Positions 49,008 through 63,678 are shown, numbered from the stretch's first letter. The stretch: 64,000 nt of DNA from an uncultured Gemmatimonadota bacterium (GCA_951812955.1 OX638340.1:544001-608000); one strand, 5' to 3'. The notes: generated by a model from the sequence alone, not told the origin. Translations and numbers: made by a program.

Positions 49008-52000
49008 TTACACCGCAGCCACGGGTTGTTCCACGGCGGTCCCGGTATCCGGGCCGCGCTCTTCCTCTGCCTCTCCGCCACCTCCACCACCCCGTTCCGC
49101 CCATCCCGATATGAAGTCATACATCACGGGAACCACGATCAGCGTCAGTACCGTGGCAATGGCCAGGCCGAAGATCACGGCCACCCCCATGGGCCCCCAC
49201 CACTGCGAGCTTTCTCCGCCGATTTCCAGGGTCAAAGTCCAGAAATTGAAACTCAACCCCGTGGTCAGGGGTATGAGCCCGAGAATCGTGGTAATTGCAG
49301 TCAACAAGACGGGGCGCAGACGGGTAACGCCTCCCTGGACGATCGCTTCCCGTTTGCGGAGTCCCCGGTTGCGCAGCTTTCGGATATAGTCGATCAGCAC
49401 GATAGCGTTGTTCACTACCACGCCCGCCAGGCTGATCACTCCGATGCCGGTCATGATGATTCCGAAAGGGGTCGCGGTAACAATCAATCCGAATAGGACG
49501 CCGATCAGCGAGAGCACCACGGACATCATGATGATGAGGGGCATGGTGACGGAATTGAACTGTGTGACGAGCACGAGCGTAATCAGGATCAGGGCGATGA
49601 GAAAGGCCTTGGATAAAAAGTCGGTGGCTTCGTCCTGCTCCACGTTTTCCCCGGTGTACCGCAGGCTGTATCCTTCTGGTAGCGACAGATCCGCGAGGGT
49701 AGTTTGCACGTCCTCGAGCACGTCGTTCGCCAGCCGGCCTTCCACGTCGCCCGCGATGGTCAGCACGCGTTCCTGGTCCTTCCGCTTGATGGATCCTACC
49801 CCGCCGGTCACGCGGGTCTGCGCCAGGGAACTGAGCGAGACCAGTTCGTCATCATGGATGATGTGGATTCTCTCCAGATCGGCGAATGTGGATCGCTCGG
49901 GTTCCGCGAACCGTACTATGATATCGTATTCTTCCTCCCCCACTCTGTATTTGGAGGCTTCCGTGCCATTGATGGCCGTACGCACCGCGCGGGCGATCTT
50001 GGCCGTGTTCAATTCAAGTAGCGCGGCCTGTTCTCTATCGATTTCCACCGTGAGTTCGGGCTTGCCCGAATCGTAATCGTCCTTGAGATCCACCAGGCCG
50101 GGTATATTCTCGATCATCAGCATGGCCTCGTCGGCAAGCCGGCCGAGCACGGAGAAATCCTCCCCGACGAATTCGATGTTTACGGGCGCCGCGGTGGGCG
50201 GTCCGGCCTGAGGCGTAATGATCTCCACGTCGGCGCCGATGAGACGTTCCATCCTTTGCCTGATCATTTCCACGGTCAGGAAAGAGGATTGCGTGCGGTC
50301 TTGCCGTTCGAAGAAGTCCACGATGATCCTGGACTTGTGCGGCGTACCGCCGCCTGCTGCGCTGAAGTCCTGTGGATTCGGCGATGCGCCTACGCTGGCG
50401 ACGTATTGTTTCATGTCCGGTACGTCCCGGATGTAATCCTCCGCCTGGCGTACGATATCATTTGATACGTCCAGCTTGGTGCCGATCGCAGAATTCACGT
50501 CGATATACGCCTGGTTGGGTTCGGTCTCGGGAAAGAACTCCACGCCCTTGCCGATCGCGGCGTAGAGTACGATCATTCCGAAGAGCGAGGCGCAGGTGAC
50601 CAGCATGACCACGGCCCTGTGCGCAAGCGCCCACATGAGAAACCGGCTGTAGCGGCGCCGCAGAACCATCAGCCAGCGTTGGTCCTCGCGTTTGCGGGTC
50701 ACACTGAGCAAAACCGAACAGACGGTAGGATTGATAATGAGACCGACGAACAGGGAAGCAGAGAGCGTGATGATCAGCGTGGCGGGCAGGTAGCTCATGA
50801 AATCACCGATTATGCCGGGCCAGAATAGCATGGGGGCGAAGGCGCACAACGTGGTCAGCGTGGAAGTGCACACCGGCACTGCCACCTCTCCCACGCCCTC
50901 TCGCGCGGCACGAACCAGGGGAGTTCCTTCCTCGCGGTGGCGATAAATGTTCTCGACTATGACGATGGCGTTATCCACGAGCATGCCCAGCGCCAGGATG
51001 AGGCTGAACAACACGACCATGTTCAGGGTGTAGCCGAGGATATCGAGTACGATGAAGGAGATCAGCATGGACAGCGGAATCGCAATAGCCACGAATAGTG
51101 CGTTGCGCACGCCCATGAACATGAACAGTACGCAGACCACCAGGATCAGCCCCGAGATGATGTTGTTCTCGAGGTCGCTGATCATGGACCTGATGTCCTT
51201 AGACTGGTCGGCCAGGACGGCCAGGTTGATGGTCTTCGGCAACCGTTCCCGTTCTTCGTCCAGCAATTCCTTCACGGCGTCGGCAATCTGTATCAGGTTC
51301 TCTCCGCTGCGTTTCTGCACATTCAGCGATACACACGGCAGTCCGTCCAGCCGCGCGTAGGTGGATACTTCCTTGAACCCGAACCGCACCTCCGCCACGT
51401 CCCCGATGGCGATAGGCTGACGATTGAAGGTCTTGATGACAAGCGCTCCGATCTCTTCCGGTGTCGTAAATTCGCCCGGCACCCTGACCGCGTATCTCAG
51501 CGTTCCGGTCTTGATCGAACCGCCGGGCATGTTGAGATTTTCCTGCCGGATCGTTTCGATGATATCCTCGAGTTCCAGCCCGTAATACACCATCCGATCC
51601 GGATCCACGTTGACCTGGACTTCCCTTTCCAACCCGCCCGCGACCGTAACGTCCAGTACGCCCGCGATCTGTTCGATCCGCTGTTCCAGGTCTTCCGCGA
51701 TATCCTTCAGCGTCACGAGGCTGTGCGTGCCGGCGACGTTGATCACCAGAATGGGGATATCGTCGAAGTTGATCTCCCGGATGGTTGATTCTTCCGCGTC
51801 GTCCGGGATCTCGGATCGCGCGAGGTCGACCTCTTCCCGCACCTTCTGGAGCGCGTTGTTGATGTCCACGTCGGTCTCGAATTCGATCACGACCGTCGAG
51901 ATGCCTTCACTGGAGGTCGAGGAGATCTCCTTCACGTTGGCAAGTTCTTCGAGGTGTTTCTCGAGCGGCTGGGTAACCAGGTTCTCTATGTCCGCTGGAG

Positions 52001-52163
52001 ACACCCCGAAATAGGGGGTGGCGACGAACACGATCGGTATGGTGATTGAAGGAGTGGATTCGCGCGGCAGCGAAAGGTAGGACATGAAACCGAGGAAGAT
52101 GACGGCCCCGGTCATGACGAAGATGCTGATTTTGTTTTTTATGGCGAGGTCAGAAACTCTCAA
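49008..52163 (-). CDS. RND (HAE1/AcrB-type) efflux transporter permease
   Basis: 1051 aa with 12 TM segments and two large periplasmic loops. Typical AcrB blocks. Confidence 0.95.
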   Translation of the reverse strand: MRVSDLAIKNKISIFVMTGAVIFLGFMSYLSLPRESTPSITIPIVFVATPYFGVSPADIENLVTQPLEKHLEELANVKEISSTSSEGISTVVIEFETDVDINNALQKVREEVDLARSEIPDDAEESTIREINFDDIPILVINVAGTHSLVTLKDIAEDLEQRIEQIAGVLDVTVAGGLEREVQVNVDPDRMVYYGLELEDIIETIRQENLNMPGGSIKTGTLRYAVRVPGEFTTPEEIGALVIKTFNRQPIAIGDVAEVRFGFKEVSTYARLDGLPCVSLNVQKRSGENLIQIADAVKELLDEERERLPKTINLAVLADQSKDIRSMISDLENNIISGLILVVCVLFMFMGVRNALFVAIAIPLSMLISFIVLDILGYTLNMVVLFSLILALGMLVDNAIVIVENIYRHREEGTPLVRAAREGVGEVAVPVCTSTLTTLCAFAPMLFWPGIIGDFMSYLPATLIITLSASLFVGLIINPTVCSVLLSVTRKREDQRWLMVLRRRYSRFLMWALAHRAVVMLVTCASLFGMIVLYAAIGKGVEFFPETEPNQAYIDVNSAIGTKLDVSNDIVRQAEDYIRDVPDMKQYVASVGASPNPQDFSAAGGGTPHKSRIIVDFFERQDRTQSSFLTVEMIRQRMERLIGADVEIITPQAGPPTAAPVNIEFVGEDFSVLGRLADEAMLMIENIPGLVDLKDDYDSGKPELTVEIDREQAALLELNTAKIARAVRTAINGTEASKYRVGEEEYDIIVRFAEPERSTFADLERIHIIHDDELVSLSSLAQTRVTGGVGSIKRKDQERVLTIAGDVEGRLANDVLEDVQTTLADLSLPEGYSLRYTGENVEQDEATDFLSKAFLIALILITLVLVTQFNSVTMPLIIMMSVVLSLIGVLFGLIVTATPFGIIMTGIGVISLAGVVVNNAIVLIDYIRKLRNRGLRKREAIVQGGVTRLRPVLLTAITTILGLIPLTTGLSFNFWTLTLEIGGESSQWWGPMGVAVIFGLAIATVLTLIVVPVMYDFISGWAERGGGGGGEAEEERGPDTGTAVEQPVAAV

Positions 52164-52208
52164 AGAATGACACTCCAGTGGATGCCGGTGGTGAATGCCG
52201 CCATCGCT

Positions 52209-53276
52209 TTACATTCTATCGTCTCTGACCTGAATGGACTCGCCGTTCACCAGGTTACGGTGGCCGACGACAATCAGGGTGTCACCGGCGGCCAGTCCAT
52301 CCGTTACAAGCACCTGGTCTCCCGAAATCGACCCCAGCGAAATCGGGACGGAACGTGCGACGCTTCCGTCCGCGACGAACACAATCCGGCCCTGATCGGT
52401 ATCGATCACCGCGTCCTGTGGAATGACGATCGCTTCCGGGATATAATCTTTGACGACGCGAATCGTTACGGCCATTTCAGGTTTCAGCAGGTGATCGGGG
52501 TTATCGAGCGTGATCTCAACCGGTACGGTGCGGCTGTCCGGATCCAGGGTCGTTCCGACGTAGGTTACGTCCGCCTCCACGCTGACGTCCGGATAGGCCG
52601 GAAACGCCAGTGCGGCGCGCGTGCCCACCGAGACGTGCTTCAGGTGGCGTTCAGGGACACCGGCCACGACTTTGACCCGGTCGATATCGACCACCTCCAC
52701 GAACTCCCGCCCTGGCGTGGCCAATTCACCCACCTCCATCATACGGCTGTCCACCACGCCGGAGATCGGCGACCGGATCACCGTTTTTCCCAGGTATGTC
52801 AGTGCCTGCTGGTGCCGCGCCCGGTCCATGTCGTTCCTGTACTGGGTGTCCAGGTACACGGATTCCGCAAGCGCCTTTTGTTCAAACAGTCTTTTCTGAT
52901 TGCGCAGGGCCAGGTCGCTGGCGTTAACCGCCGCTTCGGCTTCGTCCACCGCGGCTCTGAGCAACTCGTCGTCCAACCGCGCCAGTATGGTGTTCCGCGT
53001 AACCGATTCGCCTTTTTCAATCTCGATTTCCGTAATCAATCCGGTCGCTTCGATACTCACCACGACGCGCCGGGCCGGCTTGATCTCGCCCACGAGCCGG
53101 AGGTGATTGATGAATTCCCGAGGCTGGACGACCCGGGTCACCACATTCACGGCCCGCGTCTCCTTCACGGCGCCCGTATCGTTGGCGGCGCTGCCACTTT
53201 CACTGCAGCCCGCGGCCATCAGTACGCCTGCCAGGCATGCGGCCGAACCGAACCATTGCCAAACGCGGGTGATCAT
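52209..53276 (-). CDS. RND efflux periplasmic adaptor (membrane-fusion protein, lipoprotein)
   Basis: Lipobox MAAGCS. Biotinyl/lipoyl-like and beta-barrel domains of HlyD/AcrA. Confidence 0.9.
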   Translation of the reverse strand: MITRVWQWFGSAACLAGVLMAAGCSESGSAANDTGAVKETRAVNVVTRVVQPREFINHLRLVGEIKPARRVVVSIEATGLITEIEIEKGESVTRNTILARLDDELLRAAVDEAEAAVNASDLALRNQKRLFEQKALAESVYLDTQYRNDMDRARHQQALTYLGKTVIRSPISGVVDSRMMEVGELATPGREFVEVVDIDRVKVVAGVPERHLKHVSVGTRAALAFPAYPDVSVEADVTYVGTTLDPDSRTVPVEITLDNPDHLLKPEMAVTIRVVKDYIPEAIVIPQDAVIDTDQGRIVFVADGSVARSVPISLGSISGDQVLVTDGLAAGDTLIVVGHRNLVNGESIQVRDDRM

Positions 53277-53481: not shown

Positions 53482-54699
53482 ATGTGGAAACAGTTCAACA
53501 ACCTAGCCTACCGGATCTTCTTCGCATACCGAAACCGGAAATCGCGCAGCAGGAGCCGGGGATGGGCGGTCCGGGCTCCACTCGCGGCCGAGGCGGGACC
53601 CAGGCCCGTGCTGTATGTGGCGTGGGGCCGCGTCGGGGACGTGGTTCTGAGCACGGGGCATCTGAAATGGTTGCGCCGGTGGTTTCACCCCAGTCCGGTC
53701 TGGTTCCTCGGAAGGTCGAGCGTGAAACCGATCGTCGAACCCCATGTCGACGTCTTCCTGCCGTTCCCGGTACCGTTTGAGCGGAATACCGGCTTCGGCA
53801 ACGTCCCCGCCGCGTCGCTCGGCCGCATGGCGAACCGATCGTTCCAATACCTCATTACGGACATCCACACGTTTTACGGCGGCCTGTTCACTCTGGATGG
53901 CCTGCTGGCCTCCGTGCGGGCGGAACGGAAGTTCGTCTACGAAGGATACCACCTGGGAAAAGACCTGGCTCCGGAGCGGCCTTATCCGGACGATTACGAG
54001 ATCGTGCCGAAGTACGGGGACCGGGATGACCGGGATACGGATTTCGCTGGTGGCCATATGTTGACACACAACGGCCATTACATCCGCCACGTGTTGGACC
54101 GCTGCGGTGTCGAGCCGGATGACGGGGCGCAGTGGCGTCCGGACCTTGGCCATGTCGGAGAGGGGACGGAGGAATGCCGCCGGTTGGGGATCGAACCGGG
54201 TGAATTCGTGGCCTGGCAGCCCACCAGCGCAAACAGGAGGAAAGACTACCCGTTGTCATGCTGGGCGGAGACGATCCGCGCATTTCCGGATCAGCAGTTT
54301 GTCGCGCTGGTCGAGCCGGGCGCCGCCGCCGGTCTGGACCAGGCCGCCTTGCCGGGCGTGCGCGTCGTCGAATCGGGTTTAGCCGTGGCGATGAAGCTGA
54401 TCAGGGAGGCGCGCCTGTTTGTCGGACTGGATTCCGGGCTGAGCCATATCTCGACGGTGCTGGGAACACCGACGGTGTGTGTCTGTCCGGACAGCCATCT
54501 CGGATACTTCTTTCCCTATCCCGACGGCTACGGCTTCACGAACCTGCGCACCGTCGCCCATCCGGACTACCTGTCGTGCCGGGGATGTTTCATGACTTGC
54601 GAACACGAACCCCTCATGTCGACGATCAGCCGGGGCGCGCTTTGCCTGCGCACATTGCCTCCCCGCCAGGTCATCGATGCGATAAAAGCCGCATTATAG
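53482..54699 (+). CDS. glycosyltransferase family 9 (heptosyltransferase-like)
   Basis: C-terminal block FVGLDSGLSHISTVLGTPTVCV matches GT9 GNDSGPMHLAAALGxPxVAL. Confidence 0.7.
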   Translation: MWKQFNNLAYRIFFAYRNRKSRSRSRGWAVRAPLAAEAGPRPVLYVAWGRVGDVVLSTGHLKWLRRWFHPSPVWFLGRSSVKPIVEPHVDVFLPFPVPFERNTGFGNVPAASLGRMANRSFQYLITDIHTFYGGLFTLDGLLASVRAERKFVYEGYHLGKDLAPERPYPDDYEIVPKYGDRDDRDTDFAGGHMLTHNGHYIRHVLDRCGVEPDDGAQWRPDLGHVGEGTEECRRLGIEPGEFVAWQPTSANRRKDYPLSCWAETIRAFPDQQFVALVEPGAAAGLDQAALPGVRVVESGLAVAMKLIREARLFVGLDSGLSHISTVLGTPTVCVCPDSHLGYFFPYPDGYGFTNLRTVAHPDYLSCRGCFMTCEHEPLMSTISRGALCLRTLPPRQVIDAIKAAL

Positions 54700-54767
54700 T
54701 TCGAATGTCGCCTCCCGCGTCCGCCTTTCCTGTTGTTCGCCTCCCGCGTCCGCCTTACCCGTCCGGC

Positions 54768-56711
54768 TCACGCGTCCGCGTCCGTTCTCAGATCGACCCG
54801 GACCGGGTGGGCCAGCGCGATGAGATCTTCGATATCGAACGAGGCGAGCAGGCCGAAACAGAAGAGCGGCGACAGCGTTTCATACCGTCCCGGTTCATCG
54901 ATCAGCCGTTGAAGGCTTGCAAGTCCCCGGCGCAGCTCGATTTCTTCCACCGCGTGACTGCTCAGGGACGATGCCATGAGCGCGACTACAGAAGAAGCGG
55001 GACCCACGGCCGTCAAGCCGGACAGGGCTGCTGCCTCGTGATCCAAGACCGCCGCGAGCTGCGCGACCTGCAGCCCCAGCATCCTTTCGCCGCCCGATGA
55101 GAGCATCATCGTCCACTGATGCGGCGCCTTGCCCAGTTCACACGCGCCCTGCATGACCACTTCCACCACCATGGCCGCGTTCCCTTCCCGCAGGGCTTCC
55201 GCTACCGGGGCCGACGCGCCCCGGCTTCCGGCGTCCGTCAGGATCAGTCGCTTTTTCGCGTATTCCCGCGTCGATGGAACGGTGGTACGGACAGGAAGCA
55301 CCCAGCCGTCCCGCAAATGGCAATGGCTGTAAGTCGTTTGGCGGCCGTCGCCGGATTCCGATGCCTGCTTGATCATTTCTTCAACCGGGAAGGGCCGGTA
55401 ACGTAGAATGGATCTGAGCCGGTCCCGTCCCGCCTTCTGCCATCGGCGCATCGCGGCCGGTTCCCCTGGTGGCTTTACGCGTTTCAGCCCAAGCGCCTCG
55501 GACCGGGCCAGGGTAACGAAATCGGCGTTTCCAATCGGCGTTCCTACGGTCAGTTCTTCTTCGGAACGCACCTCGTCGGCCGAGGGGATCTCCTCGTCGC
55601 GGCCGCACGCGCCCGGCAGAAAATGCCGGTTCAGGAACCGGTAGAAACTCTCCCTGTGCTCCCGTTCGTAGTTGTGGGTGCCCGGGTCGATGTTGTTGTG
55701 GAATTCAAAGGCATCCTGCCTTCCGTACGACGCGTAAAGCGGCCGGACCGGTTCGTAGACGGATGGTCTGGCCCTGGCGGTCTGGAAGCAGCAGTCGTCA
55801 TATTCGTTATACAGCAGCAGGGCCGGGCGCGGCGCAAGCATGGCCGTGAGTACAGGATAATCGGCCGTGGAGGCGAGATCCGCGGCATTCTGTTCGATGT
55901 CGCCGCGGTCGGCCGGGTGTTTGATCCGGCTGTCCAGGCCGATGTAACCGGCATTGGGCGCGGCGAGACGCACCCGCGTGTCCAGGGCGGCCAGGATAAT
56001 CGTCTGCCATCCGCCGCCGGACAGTCCGGTCACGGCTATACGCTCCGGATCGACATGTTCCTGATTCAGCAGCACGTCCAGCGCTCGGCTCATGGCGAGG
56101 TAGAAAACGGCGATACCGGCAACTCCGCACAGGTCCAGGTAAGCTGCGTTGTTGTGCTGGTAGCCCGGTCCCTGCAACTCGCCGAACCCCAGCCACTCGG
56201 GGTTCAGCGCTACCATGCCCCGCTTGGCCAGGTTGATGCATCGTTCCTGCTTGTAGTCCACCGCTTTGCCCGGGGGACCGACATGCCCGTTCAGGTTCAG
56301 CACCCCCGGCGTTGTATCTCCTAAATCATCCGGTTCATAAAGCAGCGCCGGGATGACGAGACCGGGCTGACCGGGCCAACCGGGCCGACCAGTACTGGCA
56401 GGACTACCGGGCAACGCGTGGTAGGTCAGCTTGCGGATCCGGTATCCTTTGCCGGTCTCGATCACGTCTTTCCACTCGACACGGAGCGCTCCCTCTCGCC
56501 ATTCGTCGGGAACGCCCTTGAAAATAACCTCCTCCAGCATGGTCCGACGCATCTTCGCGGCTTCTGCGTCCCAGGTATTCGCATCTGGAAGCCTGAAACC
56601 GGGAATACGGCCCAGCATATAAGTTCGGAGGGTCTCCATGGCATCGGGTTCACTGCGTGACGGCGATGGCCGCATTACCGCCCTGTCGTCATCCCGATCC
56701 GTTTCATTCAT
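54768..56711 (-). CDS. alpha/beta-hydrolase fold protein (esterase/peptidase-like, 647 aa)
   Basis: Nucleophile elbow GLSGGG. 8-bp overlap with the upstream transglutaminase-like gene. Collagen-like PGWPGQPGL tract. Confidence 0.55.
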   Translation of the reverse strand: MNETDRDDDRAVMRPSPSRSEPDAMETLRTYMLGRIPGFRLPDANTWDAEAAKMRRTMLEEVIFKGVPDEWREGALRVEWKDVIETGKGYRIRKLTYHALPGSPASTGRPGWPGQPGLVIPALLYEPDDLGDTTPGVLNLNGHVGPPGKAVDYKQERCINLAKRGMVALNPEWLGFGELQGPGYQHNNAAYLDLCGVAGIAVFYLAMSRALDVLLNQEHVDPERIAVTGLSGGGWQTIILAALDTRVRLAAPNAGYIGLDSRIKHPADRGDIEQNAADLASTADYPVLTAMLAPRPALLLYNEYDDCCFQTARARPSVYEPVRPLYASYGRQDAFEFHNNIDPGTHNYEREHRESFYRFLNRHFLPGACGRDEEIPSADEVRSEEELTVGTPIGNADFVTLARSEALGLKRVKPPGEPAAMRRWQKAGRDRLRSILRYRPFPVEEMIKQASESGDGRQTTYSHCHLRDGWVLPVRTTVPSTREYAKKRLILTDAGSRGASAPVAEALREGNAAMVVEVVMQGACELGKAPHQWTMMLSSGGERMLGLQVAQLAAVLDHEAAALSGLTAVGPASSVVALMASSLSSHAVEEIELRRGLASLQRLIDEPGRYETLSPLFCFGLLASFDIEDLIALAHPVRVDLRTDADA

Positions 56712-57621
56712 CGGCGCGTCTCCTCTCGACCGGATTGCGCCGTATCGGGTTATTTTCCGAAAGAGGCCGCATGGTCACAGCTACTTCGATCTCGATCTCA
56801 CCACCGCCCTGCAACACGCCGTGCGTGGGAGAAACGTCCCTGTAATCTCTACCCACGGCCACGCGCACATACCGCTCATCGACCAGGGTTGCATTCGTGG
56901 GATCGAATGCGGTCCAGCCGAGTTCGGGCAACTGGCACTCCACCCAGGCGTGCGTGGTCGTCATTCCATCTCCGCTGACTTCCGCTGCAACGTCATGGAG
57001 ATAGCCGGATACGTACCGGGCGGGTATGCCCCAGGTACGCGCGATGGCGATCATGACGTGGGCGTAATCCTGGCAGACGCCGCGTCCGCTATCCAGTATA
57101 TGTTCAATTGTCGAGGAAAACGTAGTGGTTCCAGGATCATAGTGGAAGCGATCGTACAGCGTGGCCGAAAGCCGCCCCAACGCGTTCAGCGGGTCGTCCG
57201 TGGGCTTGATCCCGTTCTCTCGAACGAAGCGTTCAAGGACTGATGAAGGCCTGGCCAGGGCGCTATGGTCCAGAAAAACCCGATGATGAAACGAGTTGCG
57301 CCAACCCCTGATGGTCGCCCATGCCTCGTCTTCTATACGCTCCGAAGATGATTCGCAAGGAGTCACATCGACCGTGGATCGTGCCGTGATTACCAGTGAC
57401 CGGTGTTCGCGGTACAGGTGAAACTGGTGCCTGGTATTTCCGAAACTGTCCTCGACTTGAAAGAGCGATCCGGTCGGCTCCGTATCGATCCGGAAACCAG
57501 ATACGCGCTGTCTGCGGTCTTCCGTCGGTTTCAAAGCCAGCGACATCGCGCAGTTGCGCACGGGAATGCCGTAGCGGTATTTCGTGACGTGTTCGAGTTC
57601 GTAACGTACGTTTCCGACCAT
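56704..57621 (-). CDS. transglutaminase-like cysteine protease superfamily protein (N-terminal bacterial TG domain plus TGc core)
   Basis: TGc core GVCQDYAHVMIAIARTWGIPARYVSGY with catalytic Cys. Downstream His and Asp. Confidence 0.85.
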   Translation of the reverse strand: MVGNVRYELEHVTKYRYGIPVRNCAMSLALKPTEDRRQRVSGFRIDTEPTGSLFQVEDSFGNTRHQFHLYREHRSLVITARSTVDVTPCESSSERIEDEAWATIRGWRNSFHHRVFLDHSALARPSSVLERFVRENGIKPTDDPLNALGRLSATLYDRFHYDPGTTTFSSTIEHILDSGRGVCQDYAHVMIAIARTWGIPARYVSGYLHDVAAEVSGDGMTTTHAWVECQLPELGWTAFDPTNATLVDERYVRVAVGRDYRDVSPTHGVLQGGGEIEIEVAVTMRPLSENNPIRRNPVERRRADE

Positions 57622-57625
57622 GGCG

Positions 57626-58594
57626 TCAGTGAGCCGGTAGAATCTCCAGCGGGTAGTCTATGTATGCGTCTATGACAAGGTGATGGAGTTTTTTGCTGTC
57701 GGCATGTACCCGGTCGAGTACCGGTTGCCATACCGCTACGTCGTTCCGGCGTGCCGTTACGCATTTGCACAGCGTGTCGCCCAGTCCAAGCGCTTCCCGG
57801 CTCGAATTCGGCGCCGGACCGTGGCCTATGGCGCGCAAAACTTCGGCGGCCGAATCGACGGAACGGCGGATCGAAGCAGGAAGCAGGCCATCTGTTACGA
57901 GCAGATCCAGCACCTGGCCGGGCTGGACCACCACGCTGTAGGTATGCACGTAGGCGTCGAATGCGTGAAACGCGTGCAGCAGGTTCGCCCAGTCCGCGTC
58001 GAAGGATTCGTCCTGCCGGCCGTGATCGGCGATCTGCGCGAGCATGACCGCGGCGGAGAGCTGCACCCTTTCGATATATCTACCCAGCTGAATGAAATGC
58101 CAGCCTTCGTCGCGGTACATGGTGGCGTCGGTCACGCCGGCAAACGTGTTGATTTCCACTGAAGTGCCGGCGTAAAACGACTCGGGGGTCGTCTTCCAGA
58201 TTTCCTGGATGTTCAGCTTCTGCAGGTGCAGATAGGCCGTGTTTAATGAAAGCCACATCTCCGCGCTGATGTAGTTGCGGACCTGCCTGGCGTTTTCCCT
58301 TGCGTACACGAAACAATTCCAGATGGAATCCGGATTCGTGGGCTCGAAGGTAAGATGGTCGGCAAGGGTGTACGAATCAGCGAGTGTGTAGTCATCACTG
58401 CGGAAGGCTTCAAGTGTGCCCGCGGGCGGCGCCTGGTTCATGCTGCGGTAAACCCGGTTCCAGCCGAAGTGGATTTCCCTCAGCGGACGATCCACGAGCG
58501 TTTCCACCTGCAGTTGCATCAAACGACACAGGTGCGCCGCACGTTCCAGGTATCTCCCCATCCAATAAAGACCTTGAGCGCTTCTGGACAGCAT
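57626..58594 (-). CDS. alpha-E domain protein (DUF403)
   Basis: N-terminus LSRSAQGLYWMGRYLERAAHLCRL is the canonical alpha-E start. Confidence 0.85.
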   Translation of the reverse strand: MLSRSAQGLYWMGRYLERAAHLCRLMQLQVETLVDRPLREIHFGWNRVYRSMNQAPPAGTLEAFRSDDYTLADSYTLADHLTFEPTNPDSIWNCFVYARENARQVRNYISAEMWLSLNTAYLHLQKLNIQEIWKTTPESFYAGTSVEINTFAGVTDATMYRDEGWHFIQLGRYIERVQLSAAVMLAQIADHGRQDESFDADWANLLHAFHAFDAYVHTYSVVVQPGQVLDLLVTDGLLPASIRRSVDSAAEVLRAIGHGPAPNSSREALGLGDTLCKCVTARRNDVAVWQPVLDRVHADSKKLHHLVIDAYIDYPLEILPAH

Positions 58595-60028
58595 TTAATC
58601 TCCCAGGACCCAGATGTCTTTGCCTCCCCCGCCCTGGCTGGAGTTCACGACGAGACTTCCCTCACGCAGCGCCACACGGCAGAATGCCCCCGGGACGATG
58701 CGCGTCTCGCGTCCGTGCAGGACAAAAGGGCGCAGGTCCACGTGTCGCGCCGCGGCGCGGCCCTCGATCATGCAGGGAGCGCGTGAAAGGTCGAGCACGG
58801 GTTGCGCAATGAAATCGGCCGGATTTTCCAGGATCTCGCGGATGTAGGCATCCCGCACCGCAGAGGTCGATCGGGGACCGACCAGCATGCCATAGCCCCC
58901 GGACTCGCCCACCCTTTTAACGATGAGATCCTCCAGATTGTCCAGCGTGTATTCCAGGTCTTCCTCCCTCCGGCAGATGTAGGTTTTTACGTTCATAAGC
59001 AGCGGTTCTTCGCCCAGATAGTAACGTATCATGTCCGGAACGTAGGCGTACACGCTCTTGTCGTCTGCAACCCCCGTGCCCGGTGCATTCGCCAGGGTAA
59101 CGTTTCCGGCCCGATAGACTCCCATCAGCCCGGGAAGTCCCAGCAGAGAGTCCGGACGGAAAACCAAAGGGTCAAGGAAGTCGTCGTCCACCCGCCGGTA
59201 TATGACGTCCACCTTGCGCAGGCCCGACGTGGTGCGCATGTACACGTAACCCCCGTTGACAAGCAGGTCCCGGCCTTCTACCAGGGTCGCACCGATCTCT
59301 TCGGCCAGGTAAATATGTTCGTAGAACGCCGAATTGTATACGCCAGGCGTCAGCAAAACCACGCACGGATCGGGATCTTCCCGGGGTGCGAGTTCCTTCA
59401 GGATTTCACGAAGCAGGCGGCCGTAGTGCTCGACCTCCTGTACCCGGCAACTGCGATAAAGCCTTCGAAGATTGGCCTTCACCGCCTTCCGGTTGGCGAC
59501 CATGTAGGACACGCCGGAGGGCACACGGAGGTTGTCCTCGAGGACGTGGAACCCCTCGTTCGTGCGCACCAGATCCGTTCCACAGACGGCGACATACGTG
59601 CCGTGGGGGACGTTTATGCCCCGCATTTCCACGCGATACTGGGGACAACCGTGCACCATGTCGACGGGAATGACCCCGTCCTCGACGATACGGGCTGATC
59701 CGTAGATGTCGGCCAGGAAAAGGTTCAGGGCTTTCAGGCGCTGGGTAAGTCCGGCTTCGAGTTGCCGCCATTCCCCGGCTGTGATAAGACGGGGTAGACA
59801 GTCGACCGGCATAATTCGTTCATTGGCCTCATCGCCGCCGTAGACTGTAAACGTGATGCCTTCGCTGGAAAAGGAATGGGTGACCCTTTCCTGCATGCGA
59901 ACGAGTTCTTCAACAGGAAGCCTGAGCAGGGAATCGTAGAGCGTACGGCAGTGATCACGGGGGTTGCCGTCGGGCTGGAACATCTCGTCGTAGAAAGCGC
60001 TGTCGATTTCGTAATCTTCAAAGTCCAT
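58595..60028 (-). CDS. circularly permuted type-2 ATP-grasp protein
   Basis: 477 aa, CP_ATPgrasp_2 architecture. AGGAG Shine-Dalgarno sequence. Its stop abuts the alpha-E start. Confidence 0.85.
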   Translation of the reverse strand: MDFEDYEIDSAFYDEMFQPDGNPRDHCRTLYDSLLRLPVEELVRMQERVTHSFSSEGITFTVYGGDEANERIMPVDCLPRLITAGEWRQLEAGLTQRLKALNLFLADIYGSARIVEDGVIPVDMVHGCPQYRVEMRGINVPHGTYVAVCGTDLVRTNEGFHVLEDNLRVPSGVSYMVANRKAVKANLRRLYRSCRVQEVEHYGRLLREILKELAPREDPDPCVVLLTPGVYNSAFYEHIYLAEEIGATLVEGRDLLVNGGYVYMRTTSGLRKVDVIYRRVDDDFLDPLVFRPDSLLGLPGLMGVYRAGNVTLANAPGTGVADDKSVYAYVPDMIRYYLGEEPLLMNVKTYICRREEDLEYTLDNLEDLIVKRVGESGGYGMLVGPRSTSAVRDAYIREILENPADFIAQPVLDLSRAPCMIEGRAAARHVDLRPFVLHGRETRIVPGAFCRVALREGSLVVNSSQGGGGKDIWVLGD

Positions 60029-60099
60029 AACGAGGGTCTCCTATCTTTGGACCAGCGAGATCCTTGTCCTGGAACGGCAGGATATTTCGGGCTCAAAGG

Positions 60100-60451
60100 C
60101 GCCCTTCATACCTTGCTCATGCATTTATCACATCTTTCTCATGCTTTCTACTGCATAAGCATGTTATATGTGGTCATGCAATAGATCAAGCGAAGTTCTG
60201 AATCATCGCGATGCCGGCCAGACACGCAGAATTGATCCTGCACATTTGGAGAATTTCCAAACATTTTCAATACTGAAGTAAATTGAAACATTTTCATTGC
60301 GCTTTCCCTGTGCAGGGGTATTTTGCGTTTTAGTTCGAGTTAGCCAGCCGGTTTTCGTCACAGAATAGACAATTCAACAACCTCAAATTGCTACGCTTTA
60401 ATGTAATATGTTGATAACCGCGGGTTTATCCATCGTGCGGGAGGCGGACGA
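60100..60451. promoter_or_regulatory. AT-rich divergent control region with recurring TCATGC / ATGCA(T) elements
   Basis: CTCATGCATTT, CTCATGCTTTC, CTGCATAAGCATG and GTCATGCAAT lie within about 60115-60180. Strongly AT-rich against 65%-GC surroundings. Confidence 0.35.
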
Positions 60452-62788
60452 ATGGTAATGGAGTTTGGCAATATCCTTACCGCTTACTTCGATTTCATCT
60501 GGATGTCGTTCCTGCTTCTGGGTCCGATGTTGATGCTGGGTCTGCTGCTTTCGGGCCTGATCCACGTTTTCATCTCCCGGGAAGCGATACTCAGATGGCT
60601 TCAGGACGACAGCCTTCGCTCGGTCTCAATCAGTTCCGCCGTAGGCGTTCCGGTACCGCTCTGCAGCTGTTCCGTCGTTCCCGTAGTTGCCGAAATGCGA
60701 CGAAAGGGGGCTTCCCGCTCATCCTGCATGGCCTTCCTGATTACGGCGCCTGAAACCGGGGCCGACTCCATCCTCGTCACGAACGCTTTTTTCGGCTTCA
60801 TCGCCGCCGTTGTGCGACCTGTCATCAGTTTTATCACAGCCGTCGTGGCGGGTATTTTCTGCATCGGCCTGATCCGGGACGATAGTGGCGAGGCCAAGCC
60901 GGAGGAGGAAGACCACGGACACGCCCACCACGACCATGACCACGGTCACGACCATGGACATGACCACGATCATGACCACGATCACTCGGTCCACGATCCG
61001 CTGCTGTCGGACAAGGATGACTGCTATGTAAGCCCCTCCGCCATGAAGATCCTCATGACGAAGTGGATCAAGGGGTTGACTACCGTGGCGTCCACCTGGA
61101 GGTTCGGATCGTGGATCAAACCGGAATTCTACCGGGAGATCATCGGAGAGCAACCGGCGAAATCCGCGAATCGGACCGAACTGGATGAGGTGGAAGAAAA
61201 ATACCCCGGGCTCGATTTCAAGAAGATCGTCAAGCATATCTTCCACTACGGCTTTGTCGAGATCGCCGATGATATACTCTTCGCGCTGCTCGTCGGTATC
61301 GCGCTGGGCGGCGTGCTGTTCCTGGTCATACCGGCCGACCTGATGTCCAACGAATACGCACGCTGGCTTTCCTACCCCGTAATGATCATCGTCGGCGTGC
61401 CCCTTTACATCTGCGCCTCCGCCAGCACGCCGATTGCCGCCGCGCTGGTCGCCCGGGGCGTCAGTCCAGGGGCCGCCCTGATATTCCTGATGACAGGCCC
61501 CGCGACCAACACAAGCACCATCGCCATCATCATGAGTCAGTTCGGCGCGCGTTTCGCGGCCGTATACGTCACGTCAGTCATCGCGGTCACCGCGGTGATC
61601 GGCATAGCCATCGATTTCATACTGGTGGCCACCGGGTTTGCCATTTCCGTCAACCTGTTGCCTTCCGATTCCCCCACGCTTCAAATTCTGCAGTGGGGCG
61701 GCGCGCTCGGGCTGATCGCGCTTATCGTCTGGAGGTACCGCGCCGGCGCCATGCGCAGCGGTTACGAAGACCTCATGCTCAACATCCGACCCTTCTCCCG
61801 GCCATGGCGGAACACGTGGAAGCGGCTGACCCGTGACCGGTCGTTCCGGGGTACGATTTCACCCACCACACCCATGGGCATGATGCTGTGGGGCTTGCTG
61901 CTGGTCCTCTTTCTTGGCAGCGGGTTCACGGCCGTGCCGCCGGGTCACGTCGGATACGGCCGGTTGTTCGGCGAGGTATACTGGAAAGACCTTCAGCCCG
62001 GGCTTCATTACCTGGCGCCGCGCCCCCTCGTCCAGGTCGACAAGTGGCCAGTCAGGGAAGTAAAATCAATTATGTCCGAGACACCGTACGAGTACGTGTC
62101 GGGCGACCTGAACATGCTCACGCTCACCCTGGACGTCCAGTACCGGGTAAACGACCCGTACACGTATCACTACCGTACGGTCGATCCGGAAGAGATCATC
62201 GAAGACGCGGTGCGCGAGCACGTTCGTACTTTTGTCAACGCACGTGACCTGGATCGGCTCCTCACTGCATACCGGGCGGAACTGGAAGATGAGCTGACGA
62301 ATCTCTTCGTGACGGATGCCCGGATGCACGGCGACAAGTCGGTGCTTGGCACCGTCGACCTCGTGAAGGTCAGCCTGCTGAACGTCACCCCGGCGGCGGA
62401 AGCCCTGAGTTCCTTCCGGGAGATTTCAAGCGCCCAGGAAGACAGGGAAAGAATCATCGTCAACGCGCAACGGTTCATGGTGTCCCTGGTGCCGCGCGCT
62501 CACGGCAATGCCGAGTATGAGAAAGAACAGGCCGATGGAGAGGCATTTCGCAAGGTGGCGACCTCCGCGGCGGAAGCGGATGCCATTATGGTCATTTCTT
62601 CTGCCATGCAGACGGCGCCGGAAGTCCTGCGGAACATGCTGTGGCGGGAAAAGTTGGAATCCGCTCTCGCCGGCAATCCCAAGATTATCGTGCCCAACAG
62701 ACAGAGTTTCAACAAGGTCGCGATCTGGAAAAAGAGGCCGGCGGAAGCCGCCGCCCCATCCGCCAAGACAGGAGGTAAAGGCAAATGA
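60452..62788 (+). CDS. fusion protein: ArsP/DUF318-family CxC permease with His/Asp-rich loop, fused in frame to an HflK-like SPFH (band-7) domain
   Basis: N-terminal half has about 8 TM segments, the PLCSCSVVP motif and the loop HGHAHHDHDHGHDHGHDHDHDHDH. After a linker, TM MGMMLWGLLLVLFLGSGF is followed by the HflK-type block VPPGHVGYGRLFGE...PGLHYLAPRP. There is no stop codon or Shine-Dalgarno sequence between the halves. Confidence 0.75.
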   Translation: MVMEFGNILTAYFDFIWMSFLLLGPMLMLGLLLSGLIHVFISREAILRWLQDDSLRSVSISSAVGVPVPLCSCSVVPVVAEMRRKGASRSSCMAFLITAPETGADSILVTNAFFGFIAAVVRPVISFITAVVAGIFCIGLIRDDSGEAKPEEEDHGHAHHDHDHGHDHGHDHDHDHDHSVHDPLLSDKDDCYVSPSAMKILMTKWIKGLTTVASTWRFGSWIKPEFYREIIGEQPAKSANRTELDEVEEKYPGLDFKKIVKHIFHYGFVEIADDILFALLVGIALGGVLFLVIPADLMSNEYARWLSYPVMIIVGVPLYICASASTPIAAALVARGVSPGAALIFLMTGPATNTSTIAIIMSQFGARFAAVYVTSVIAVTAVIGIAIDFILVATGFAISVNLLPSDSPTLQILQWGGALGLIALIVWRYRAGAMRSGYEDLMLNIRPFSRPWRNTWKRLTRDRSFRGTISPTTPMGMMLWGLLLVLFLGSGFTAVPPGHVGYGRLFGEVYWKDLQPGLHYLAPRPLVQVDKWPVREVKSIMSETPYEYVSGDLNMLTLTLDVQYRVNDPYTYHYRTVDPEEIIEDAVREHVRTFVNARDLDRLLTAYRAELEDELTNLFVTDARMHGDKSVLGTVDLVKVSLLNVTPAAEALSSFREISSAQEDRERIIVNAQRFMVSLVPRAHGNAEYEKEQADGEAFRKVATSAAEADAIMVISSAMQTAPEVLRNMLWREKLESALAGNPKIIVPNRQSFNKVAIWKKRPAEAAAPSAKTGGKGK
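60911..60998 (+). repeat. codon-level GACCAC/GACCAT repeat encoding a (H-D/H-G)n tract
   Basis: gaccacggacacgcccaccacgaccatgaccacggtcacgaccatggacatgaccacgatcatgaccacgatcac. Confidence 0.85.
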
Positions 62789-63678
62789 CCGGTAAGGGAC
62801 GTGGCATCCGAACGGCCATCGTCGCGCTCGTGCTGGCGGCGATCGTTTACGACTGTTTCTATGTGATCAACGAAACCCAGCAGGGGGTCCTGACGAACTT
62901 CGGCCGGATTTCGCCTCCGGTGAAGCAGCCCGGACTACATGTCAAGTGGCCCCGACCGATTTCAAGAGTCTACAAGGTGGACCGGAGGCTGCAGACACTC
63001 ACCGACGTGTCCCATGAGTTGATTACCGAAGATCAGAAGAACATCCTGATCAGCGGCTACCTGCTCTGGCGCATCGTAGACCCAATCCTGTATGTCGAGG
63101 CGATACGCACGGGCGCCAATGCAGCCGAACGTCTGCGGGATCTCTACCTTTCGAGCAGTGGGATCGTGATCAGTAACAAGGCCCGTGATGCATTCATCAG
63201 CCTTGGGCTGGAACACGAAGACCTGCACGAAGCGGCCCGTGACATCCTGAGCAGTGTCGCCCCGATTGCCAGTACCAACTATGGTATCGAGGTGCTGAAA
63301 GCCGGTATCATCGAATACACGCTGCCCATGGAAAACCGCCCGGCCGTGATCCAGCGTATGATATCGGAGCGCGCGCGCATCGCGGCCCGGTACCGCAGCG
63401 AGGGCGAGGAGATGGCCATCCGCATCGAAGCGCTGGCAATAAACGAACATGAGAAGCTTATGGCGGAGGCGCACGCGGAAGCCACGGCCATACTCGGTGA
63501 GGCCGAAGCGGAAGCGATGGCTTTGCTGGGCAGGGCTTACCGGAGGGACCCGGCGTTCTACCGGTTCATCCGGGCCCTTGACAGTTATGATCTGATTATC
63601 GACAAAAACACGACCCTTATGTTGCCGGCCGACAACGAACTGTTCAGATACCTGGACAGCAGAACGGTTCCCAGGTAG
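62785..63678 (+). CDS. HflC-like SPFH/band-7 protein
   Basis: N-terminal TM, then QQGVLTNFGRISPPVKQPGLHVKWPRPISRVYKVDRRLQTL (HflC-type block). GGAGG Shine-Dalgarno sequence. ATGA overlap with the upstream gene. Confidence 0.85.
   Translation: MTGKGRGIRTAIVALVLAAIVYDCFYVINETQQGVLTNFGRISPPVKQPGLHVKWPRPISRVYKVDRRLQTLTDVSHELITEDQKNILISGYLLWRIVDPILYVEAIRTGANAAERLRDLYLSSSGIVISNKARDAFISLGLEHEDLHEAARDILSSVAPIASTNYGIEVLKAGIIEYTLPMENRPAVIQRMISERARIAARYRSEGEEMAIRIEALAINEHEKLMAEAHAEATAILGEAEAEAMALLGRAYRRDPAFYRFIRALDSYDLIIDKNTTLMLPADNELFRYLDSRTVPR

Follow-up and report, generated by a model that had tools for sequence, protein, structure and literature searches.

A CE19-like esterase gene co-located with a CP-ATP-grasp/Alpha-E/transglutaminase operon in one sponge-associated bacterial clade

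The window analysed here is a stretch of 64,000 nucleotides from an uncultured Gemmatimonadota bacterium (GCA_951812955.1, OX638340.1:544001-608000), and all positions are counted from its first letter. A first-pass annotation had described four closely packed genes on the minus strand at 54768-60028, and an ORF listing of the window confirmed that these are four real ORFs with the coordinates, organisation and junction spacing described. In gene order they encode an ATP-grasp protein (58595-60028, 477 aa), an Alpha-E protein (57626-58594, 322 aa), a transglutaminase-like (TGc) protein (56704-57621, 305 aa) and an alpha/beta hydrolase of 647 aa (54768-56711), referred to below as the esterase. 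The Alpha-E gene starts directly after the ATP-grasp stop codon (0 bp gap), a 4 bp gap separates Alpha-E from TGc, and the esterase gene overlaps the TGc stop by 8 bp (ATGAATGA).

Upstream of the first gene lies a divergent intergenic region (60029-60451), which is likely to hold the promoter and 5′ leader of the operon and also serves a divergent Cu/Zn-efflux permease gene. It had been noted as AT-rich, and its GC content is indeed 0.43-0.46 compared to approximately 0.60 in the genes. Alignment of 10 syntenic loci revealed conserved leader blocks, CTTGATCT-N13-ATATAACATG, together with a duplicated GCATGAG(N)AAG, and a GGAG ribosome-binding site precedes the ATP-grasp ATG, 3′ of these blocks. 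The leader motif GGAAAGCATGAG occurs at one site in the window, with no further copy. A scan for the sigma-70 consensus returned 0 sites versus 3.0 expected, terminator-like sites were at chance level with none between the four genes or directly 3′ of the esterase stop, and an Rfam scan of 54500-60600 at E ≤ 1 found no riboswitch or leader family. The sole Rfam match in that interval, to CRISPR-DR20 inside the esterase gene (E 0.27), was dismissed as chance. We infer that all four genes are transcribed from a putative promoter in 60029-60451.

The first three genes form a canonical triad operon, with full-length proteins, intact catalytic motifs and conserved order. The family assignments proposed for them were upheld by HMM searches, as all the Pfam matches lie above the curated cut-offs, though no NCBIfam model matched any of the three proteins. 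The ATP-grasp protein matches CP_ATPgrasp_2 over the full length of the model (515 bits, 1.3e-154, model positions 1-374 of 374). Its solved orthologue is PDB 3N6X, annotated as a 'putative glutathionylspermidine synthase' (5.9e-161), and its counterparts in clade relatives are 87-97 % identical to it. The second protein matches Alpha-E (214 bits, 5.9e-63, model positions 1-293 of 294), and a search by sequence for a solved structure of it found none. The TGc protein matches Bact_transglu_N (71 bits, 1.1e-19) and Transglut_core (82 bits, 4e-23), and its C183, H224 and D240 are unchanged across 18 homologues.

This module has been described before (Valas & Bourne 2008, PMC3235984; Piasecka et al. 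2017, PMC6376114; Fuchs et al. 2017, PMC5666114; also Iyer et al. 2009, as quoted in papers citing it) and, with Anbu, makes up the Anbu operon, which is induced by nitrogen limitation (PMC6376114, PMC5666114). The Yersinia ATP-grasp protein frees orthophosphate from ATP, and in the canonical operon the fourth gene is usually that of another hydrolase, Anbu (PMC6376114, PMC5666114). The three families, their order, their shared strand and their near-zero spacing are the same in the window, where the ATP-grasp protein is orthologous to 3N6X and the TGc protein has a Cys-His-Asp catalytic triad. However, the fourth gene at this locus encodes a CE19-like esterase, found beside the operon in this clade only, rather than the proteasome-like Anbu. 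Anbu, a proteasome beta-like Ntn hydrolase, defines the full Anbu operon and not the triad, and the genes 3′ of the metagenome triad loci sampled are variable, with no Anbu among those annotated. The triad in the window is an ordinary member of the known module, an 'Anbu operon' without Anbu. An ammonium-transporter insertion was considered as a general feature of triads and rejected, as it occurs in L085-L087 only.

As proposed for the family, the ATP-grasp protein would activate a carboxylate to an acyl-phosphate and ligate it to an amine, on a peptide or amino-group substrate, with Alpha-E as a non-catalytic partner, and the TGc protein would use its Cys-His-Asp residues to cleave or transfer the amide bond so made. 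Nitrogen limitation would be the likely physiological setting. Our literature search found no experimentally defined substrate for any member of the triad, in agreement with what had been stated earlier.

The fourth protein has two domains, an N-terminal catalytic alpha/beta hydrolase (residues ~25-410) and a C-terminal alpha/beta domain (~440-645) from which catalytic motifs are absent. The GLSGGG nucleophile motif noted earlier is present at residues 229-234 (codons at 56010-56027, minus strand, G229-L-S231-G-G-G234) and is invariant in 51 homologues. S231, D305 and H346 are likewise invariant in the 51, and the catalytic assignment of D305 and H346 is from position and invariance rather than from residue-level structural superposition. 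The best match is to the methylesterase BT1017, followed by acetyl-xylan, feruloyl and glucuronoyl esterases, and the catalytic module is also structurally closest to BT1017, the RG-II pectin methylesterase of Bacteroides thetaiotaomicron and founding member of CAZy family CE19 (Duan et al. 2021, PMC7939467). The profile match to its structure (PDB 6GOC) has an E value of 1e-14 and covers residues 59-255 only, at 20 % identity. The nucleophile motif resembles that of BT1017, and the spacing of the catalytic residues is comparable, at 70 and 36 residues in BT1017 (S282-D352-H388) and 74 and 41 in the esterase (S231-D305-H346). Unlike BT1017, the esterase has neither a signal peptide nor a DUF3826 domain and instead carries the C-terminal alpha/beta domain of approximately 210 aa.

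A counterpart in overall architecture, by description only, is TBR22_41900 from Luteitalea sp. TBR-22, which belongs to CE19 and has an additional alpha/beta domain (cazy_webscraper preprint, bioRxiv 10.1101/2022.12.02.518825). At 634 aa compared to 647 aa, it combines an N-terminal CE19 domain of ~380 aa with an alpha/beta/alpha sandwich described as having no Pfam or PDB sequence match, which holds for the second domain of the window esterase too. Both proteins have the database name 'acetylxylan esterase', but a triad operon context is not reported for TBR22_41900.

Pfam matches to the esterase are confined to the nucleophile-elbow region (residues 204-257), at 26.6 bits for AXE1 and 27.1 bits for GCE_fung. 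Membership of CE7/AXE1 was rejected, as the AXE1 match covers model positions 157-210, 54 of 321. The name that NCBI gives to close homologues, CE7 acetyl xylan esterase/cephalosporin C deacetylase, reflects naming by weak similarity and not membership. Weak matches to S9 peptidases and to lasso-peptide isopeptidase might suggest a serine peptidase or isopeptidase that trims a peptide product of the triad. However, the lasso isopeptidase hit, like one to PHB depolymerase, is below the NCBIfam threshold and was set aside as generic nucleophile-elbow similarity, and we regard this reading as highly improbable. We therefore classify the fourth protein as a CE19-like serine esterase of cytoplasmic type and two-domain build, with Ser231-Asp305-His346 as its assigned catalytic residues, an enzyme of carbohydrate-esterase type rather than a peptidase. 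It lacks a signal peptide, which many of its distant homologues have, and its substrate is therefore probably intracellular; it need not be a polysaccharide.

The PGWPGQPGL tract that had been called collagen-like is present at esterase residues 110-118, but a collagen-like function for it was rejected. It lies inside a Pro/Gly-rich insertion (approximately residues 103-117; codons at 56361-56405, minus strand, SPASTGRPGWPGQPG). In a 14-sequence alignment, this insertion is confined to the window protein and its close relatives P0008 and P0024, with a gap at that place in the remaining 11. The insertion is modelled with low confidence (pLDDT < 50 at residues 106-110), and we consider it a clade-specific disordered loop.

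The first-pass annotation had further proposed that the hydrolase is a fourth member of the module, adding a hydrolytic or processing step, and that conservation of its gene neighbourhood should be examined. The linkage proved to be confined to one clade. The triad adjoins the hydrolase only in the window's own clade, whose hydrolases are at least 69 % identical and which accounts for 9 of 80 species-level hydrolase loci, eight of the nine keeping at least remnants of the triad. This clade is sponge-associated, and its records are labelled Gemmatimonadota or Latescibacterota. Among the 71 hydrolase loci that are more distant (38-54 % identity), no triad is adjacent, including at the 53 with at least 4 kb of upstream sequence. 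Outside the clade, the genes that recur beside the esterase family encode GFO/IDH/MocA oxidoreductases and sulfatases. Conversely, this hydrolase is downstream of the triad at none of the 55 metagenome TGc loci with at least 2 kb of downstream sequence. ATP-grasp and Alpha-E are present at all 45 metagenome TGc loci whose upstream sequence extends to 2.5 kb or more.

The same syntenic slot (order permease/.../GT9/MFP/RND) can be followed from genome to genome, and triad and hydrolase occur together in it in eight genomes. At L004, the triad is pseudogenised by frameshifts and deletions, with the loss of ~48 aa of ATP-grasp and of a block comprising Alpha-E residues 200-322 and TGc residues 1-44, and the hydrolase is intact. 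Sequencing error was rejected as the cause, as these blocks are missing besides the frameshifts and the genes to either side on that contig are undamaged. At L010, the whole triad has been deleted and the hydrolase retained on the same promoter, the deletion joining the hydrolase ATG to the conserved promoter and leader such that the first GCATGAG copy abuts the start codon. The reverse arrangement is found at L083, in a neighbouring lineage, where an intact triad without the hydrolase ends 8 bp from GT9. In the tree, L004 pairs with L010 as its sister inside the clade, and L083 branches as the outgroup. The hydrolases of L004 and L010 retain all catalytic residues, and dN/dS between them is 0.20. 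Thus, in one and the same slot, either part can be dispensed with while the other stays, and independent loss or absence at these three loci speaks against the proposed functional tie between the hydrolase and the triad. Taken with the 0/71 and 0/55 counts, this means that the claim of an added processing step largely fails.

What does stand from the description of a translationally overlapped fourth member is the predicted co-transcription and translational coupling, which are conserved in the clade. The 3′ end of the TGc gene holds the Shine-Dalgarno sequence of the esterase gene, GAGGAG, and the two genes meet in an ATGA-type start/stop overlap. Wherever the triad is intact in the clade, both the GAGGAG and the overlap (8 bp here, 4 bp elsewhere) are present, and dS between clade members is ~0.7-0.9. 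From these sequence features, the esterase is predicted to be translationally coupled to the TGc gene, and the retention of this arrangement across the clade is consistent with an advantage in expressing the esterase together with the triad.

Such coupling, in a position where the canonical operon holds a hydrolase, would fit if the esterase were a true fourth pathway component in this clade, standing in for Anbu and hydrolysing the product of the ATP-grasp protein or a tagged substrate, possibly at an ester rather than an amide. The absence of a signal peptide from the clade esterases would place them in the same compartment as the triad, and formation of an ester bond by an ATP-grasp enzyme has been reported for Rv1722. 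However, in the one test reported, the CP-ATP-grasp protein Rv2411c was negative for synthesis of GABA-trehalose, the ester made by Rv1722, and the nearest structural relatives of the esterase are carbohydrate esterases. Moreover, purifying selection keeps the esterase intact both at L004, with its pseudogenised triad, and at L010, from which the triad has been deleted, the intact L083 triad in the same slot has no esterase, and co-occurrence outside the clade is absent in both directions. We consider a true fourth component unlikely, and the more specific proposal, that in this sponge-associated clade the triad recruited a cytoplasmic CE19-like esterase to fill the hydrolytic fourth role otherwise held by Anbu, quite unlikely. 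Were that recruitment true, the CP-ATP-grasp/Alpha-E product would carry an ester or an esterase-labile bond, and the specificity of the esterase could be used to identify the substrate of the triad.

The gene on the other side of the esterase offers a different potential partner. On the plus strand, a GT9-like glycosyltransferase gene (53482-54699) terminates 68 bp away from the stop codon of the esterase, and the clade keeps the two genes in synteny. A carbohydrate esterase and a glycosyltransferase could plausibly have a common glycan substrate, in which case the esterase would act on an envelope glycan or lipopolysaccharide core and not with the triad. However, the two genes are convergent and so not co-transcribed, and each is found without the other: L083 has GT9 and no esterase, and at L010 the esterase is present but GT9 is reduced to frameshifted fragments (residues 82-233). 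Nor does GT9 recur beside members of the esterase family elsewhere than in the clade, making this pairing very unlikely.

The explanation that we favour, with a probability of roughly 0.75, is that the locus is a triad operon to which an unrelated esterase was appended in the ancestor of one clade, the esterase being co-transcribed but functionally separable. The operon would then be a mere source of transcription and translation for the esterase, which would act separately to de-esterify a sugar carrying methyl or acetyl esters, or some comparable small ester. Against this, the fourth position being usually that of a hydrolase, Anbu, makes a non-homologous replacement by the esterase conceivable.

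The triad is among the most widespread bacterial operons with no known substrate, and any additional partner that is conserved could give access to its chemistry. On the present evidence, the esterase does not offer such access. It joined once, in one clade, persists when the triad decays and is absent from the intact triad of L083. The L083, window, L004 and L010 loci together constitute a natural 'deletion series' for the separability of triad and esterase, and the locus is a worked example of how a common pathway does not follow from translational coupling by itself.

Four ORFs on the minus strand at 54768–60028 are arranged as the first-pass annotation had described, and encode, in order, an ATP-grasp protein (58595–60028, 477 aa), an Alpha-E protein (57626–58594, 322 aa), a transglutaminase-like (TGc) protein (56704–57621, 305 aa) and a hydrolase (54768–56711, 647 aa), with gaps of 0 bp and 4 bp at the first two junctions and an overlap of 8 bp at the third. 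The AT-rich 423 bp spacer 5' of the operon (GC 0.43–0.46 versus about 0.60) is shared with a divergent gene (60452–62788, plus strand, 778 aa) in which an SO_0444-type Cu/Zn efflux permease (ArsP_1) is fused to an HflK-like SPFH domain; an HflC-like gene (62785–63678, plus strand) overlaps its 3' end. Downstream, a convergent gene for a GT9-like glycosyltransferase ends 68 bp from the hydrolase stop codon. The surroundings include metal-homeostasis genes: a CzcB/CusB-like membrane fusion protein (MFP) and an RND pump are encoded on one side (49008–53276, minus strand) and, farther out than the permease on the opposite side, the relatives' loci L001 and L083 carry ZIP and heavy-metal P-type ATPase genes. 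As only the permease part was matched by tblastn, or the called gene was only about 460 aa, in L004, L005, L007, L009 and L083, the fusion appears to be variable within the clade of sponge-associated relatives.

The first three genes (the triad) belong to a module known since 2008–2009 and are a typical example of it. A Pfam search bore out all three proposed family assignments, and the scores clear the curated cut-offs by a wide margin: CP_ATPgrasp_2 (1.3e-154, whole model matched), Alpha-E (5.9e-63) and, in the TGc protein, both Bact_transglu_N and Transglut_core. The TGc protein retains C183, H224 and D240, three residues that do not vary among 18 homologues, and the structural-genomics entry 3N6X is an orthologue of the ATP-grasp protein (5.9e-161). 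We adopt the published prediction that the ATP-grasp protein would make an acyl-phosphate and join a carboxylate to an amine, with Alpha-E as a partner without catalysis, and that the Cys-His-Asp TGc protein would cut or transfer the bond made. Nitrogen limitation induces the operon in other bacteria, and the Yersinia ATP-grasp protein releases orthophosphate from ATP (PMC6376114, PMC5666114). Apart from this and a test in which Rv2411c did not make GABA-trehalose, a literature search found no triad biochemistry. In one further lineage, from samples of the same type, the ATP-grasp and Alpha-E genes are separated by an ammonium transporter gene (Pfam Ammonium_transp; L085, 3632–5023; L086, 3716–5023; L087, 3602–5003, where it and the ATP-grasp gene are each split into two ORFs); this arrangement was restricted to these three loci and fits the link to nitrogen limitation.

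The fourth gene product aligns with BT1017, the founding member of esterase family CE19, with S231, D305 and H346 in identical order and at similar spacing to its catalytic residues, and shares the two-domain layout already described for TBR22_41900 (CE19, 634 aa). It is, therefore, a carbohydrate-esterase-type serine esterase and not a peptidase, and lies inside, or close to, the two-domain CE19 branch already noted in the literature. The second alpha/beta domain in the structure model (residues about 440–645) includes no nucleophile motif and has no Pfam match. The PGWPGQPGL tract previously read as collagen-like is present; that reading was rejected, as the tract lies in an insertion limited to the window and close relatives and modelled as a low-confidence loop. 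The clade esterases and their nearest relatives (52–57 % identity) lack a hydrophobic N-terminus that 39 of the 66 more distant homologues have, and hence the enzyme is probably cytoplasmic, like the triad proteins. A weak, single-copy Rfam CRISPR-DR20 match within the gene (55437–55473, plus strand; 22.9 bits versus a gathering score of 42, E 0.27) was taken as chance.

The first-pass annotation had suggested that this enzyme adds a processing step to the triad, and gene neighbourhoods largely failed to bear this out. Among 80 species-level loci encoding esterase relatives, with flanks of up to 10 kb either way, queried with the three triad proteins, the triad adjoins the esterase only in the closest clade (at least 69 % identity, L003–L011). 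No triad was found at the 71 loci whose esterases are 38–54 % identical, 53 of these loci having at least 4 kb upstream. Oxidoreductases of the GFO/IDH/MocA type and sulfatases recur beside these distant esterases, and no conserved partner gene was found among their neighbours. In the reverse search of 80 metagenome loci encoding TGc relatives (31–51 % identity), ATP-grasp and Alpha-E accompany TGc at every one of the 45 loci whose upstream sequence was long enough, showing tight conservation of the triad itself, and no window-type esterase was found at the 55 loci extending 2 kb or more downstream. The genes 3' of TGc vary and are often on the opposite strand; the Abhydrolase_1 protein following TGc in L156 is unrelated to the window esterase. 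In several soil or peat loci (L112, L119, L126, L127 and L132–L135), an ORF of about 1,230–1,310 aa with an N-terminal signal recurs 110–410 bp after the triad and resembles, from its sequence, an outer-membrane protein of the TonB-dependent-receptor or carboxypeptidase-regulatory-like kind.

Within the syntenic slot of the clade (permease, triad, esterase, GT9, MFP, RND), all triad/esterase combinations occur. Both are intact in the window and seven other genomes (L003, L005–L009 and L011). In L004, which is the same locus as L001, the triad has decayed, with the esterase and every flanking gene left intact: ATP-grasp has frameshifts and lacks about 48 aa, Alpha-E is truncated past residue 199 and TGc lacks its first 44 residues. 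The triad is wholly absent from L010, where the operon's conserved promoter/leader block is immediately followed by the start codon of the esterase. In L083, whose TGc is the next-closest relative (63 % identity), the triad is intact and the esterase absent; the TGc gene ends 8 bp from the GT9 gene. The GT9-like gene of L010 (11925–12376) is also reduced to frameshifted fragments (residues 82–233 of 405), leaving an intact esterase between two decayed neighbours. In neighbour-joining trees, L004 and L010 are sisters nested in the clade (RND, MFP and esterase proteins) and L083 is the outgroup (RND and ATP-grasp proteins). The simplest history would be a single esterase insertion downstream of TGc, or a loss in the L083 lineage, followed by triad decay and deletion in one sub-lineage. 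The esterase dN/dS for L004 versus L010 is 0.20 (other pairs 0.21–0.32) and both retain all catalytic residues; the gene remained under purifying selection after the triad decayed.

Every clade member with an intact triad carries GAGGAG in the 3' end of TGc, 7–9 nt before the esterase ATG, and a TGc stop that overlaps or abuts the esterase start (ATGA or ATGAATGA), and co-transcription and translational coupling thus appear conserved; the L010 deletion seemingly kept esterase expression from the operon's promoter. The 5' region of the operon (60030–60200, minus strand) and the L003–L010 intergenic regions contain conserved blocks: a promoter-like one (CTTGATCT-N13-ATATAACATG), two copies of GCATGAG(N)AAG spaced by about 25 nt and, ahead of the GGAG ribosome-binding site, TTCCAGGACAAGGATCTCGC. 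The second repeat and TTCCAGGACAAGGATCTCGC are missing from L007 and L009, and L010 has its first repeat joined directly to the start of the esterase. These blocks may form an operator or leader element, and a 27-codon ORF (MHEQGMKG...) crosses the region in the window.

Conserved coupling and a probable cytoplasmic location shared with the triad are what would be cited if the esterase replaced Anbu, the proteasome-like product of the canonical operon's fourth gene, as a true fourth component. We consider this very unlikely, because esterase and triad are independent both at the distant loci and in the slot states of L004, L010 and L083, and the coupling and compartment do not outweigh this reciprocal independence. 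Together with the shared promoter, they are consistent with a gene that borrows the expression signals of the operon. Our preferred reading, to which we assign a probability of roughly 0.75, is that the esterase would act on a small intracellular substrate, of sugar type or similar, and strip it of a methyl or acetyl ester, independently of the triad. The juxtaposition of triad and esterase is previously undescribed, and the evidence points to lineage-specific operon accretion.
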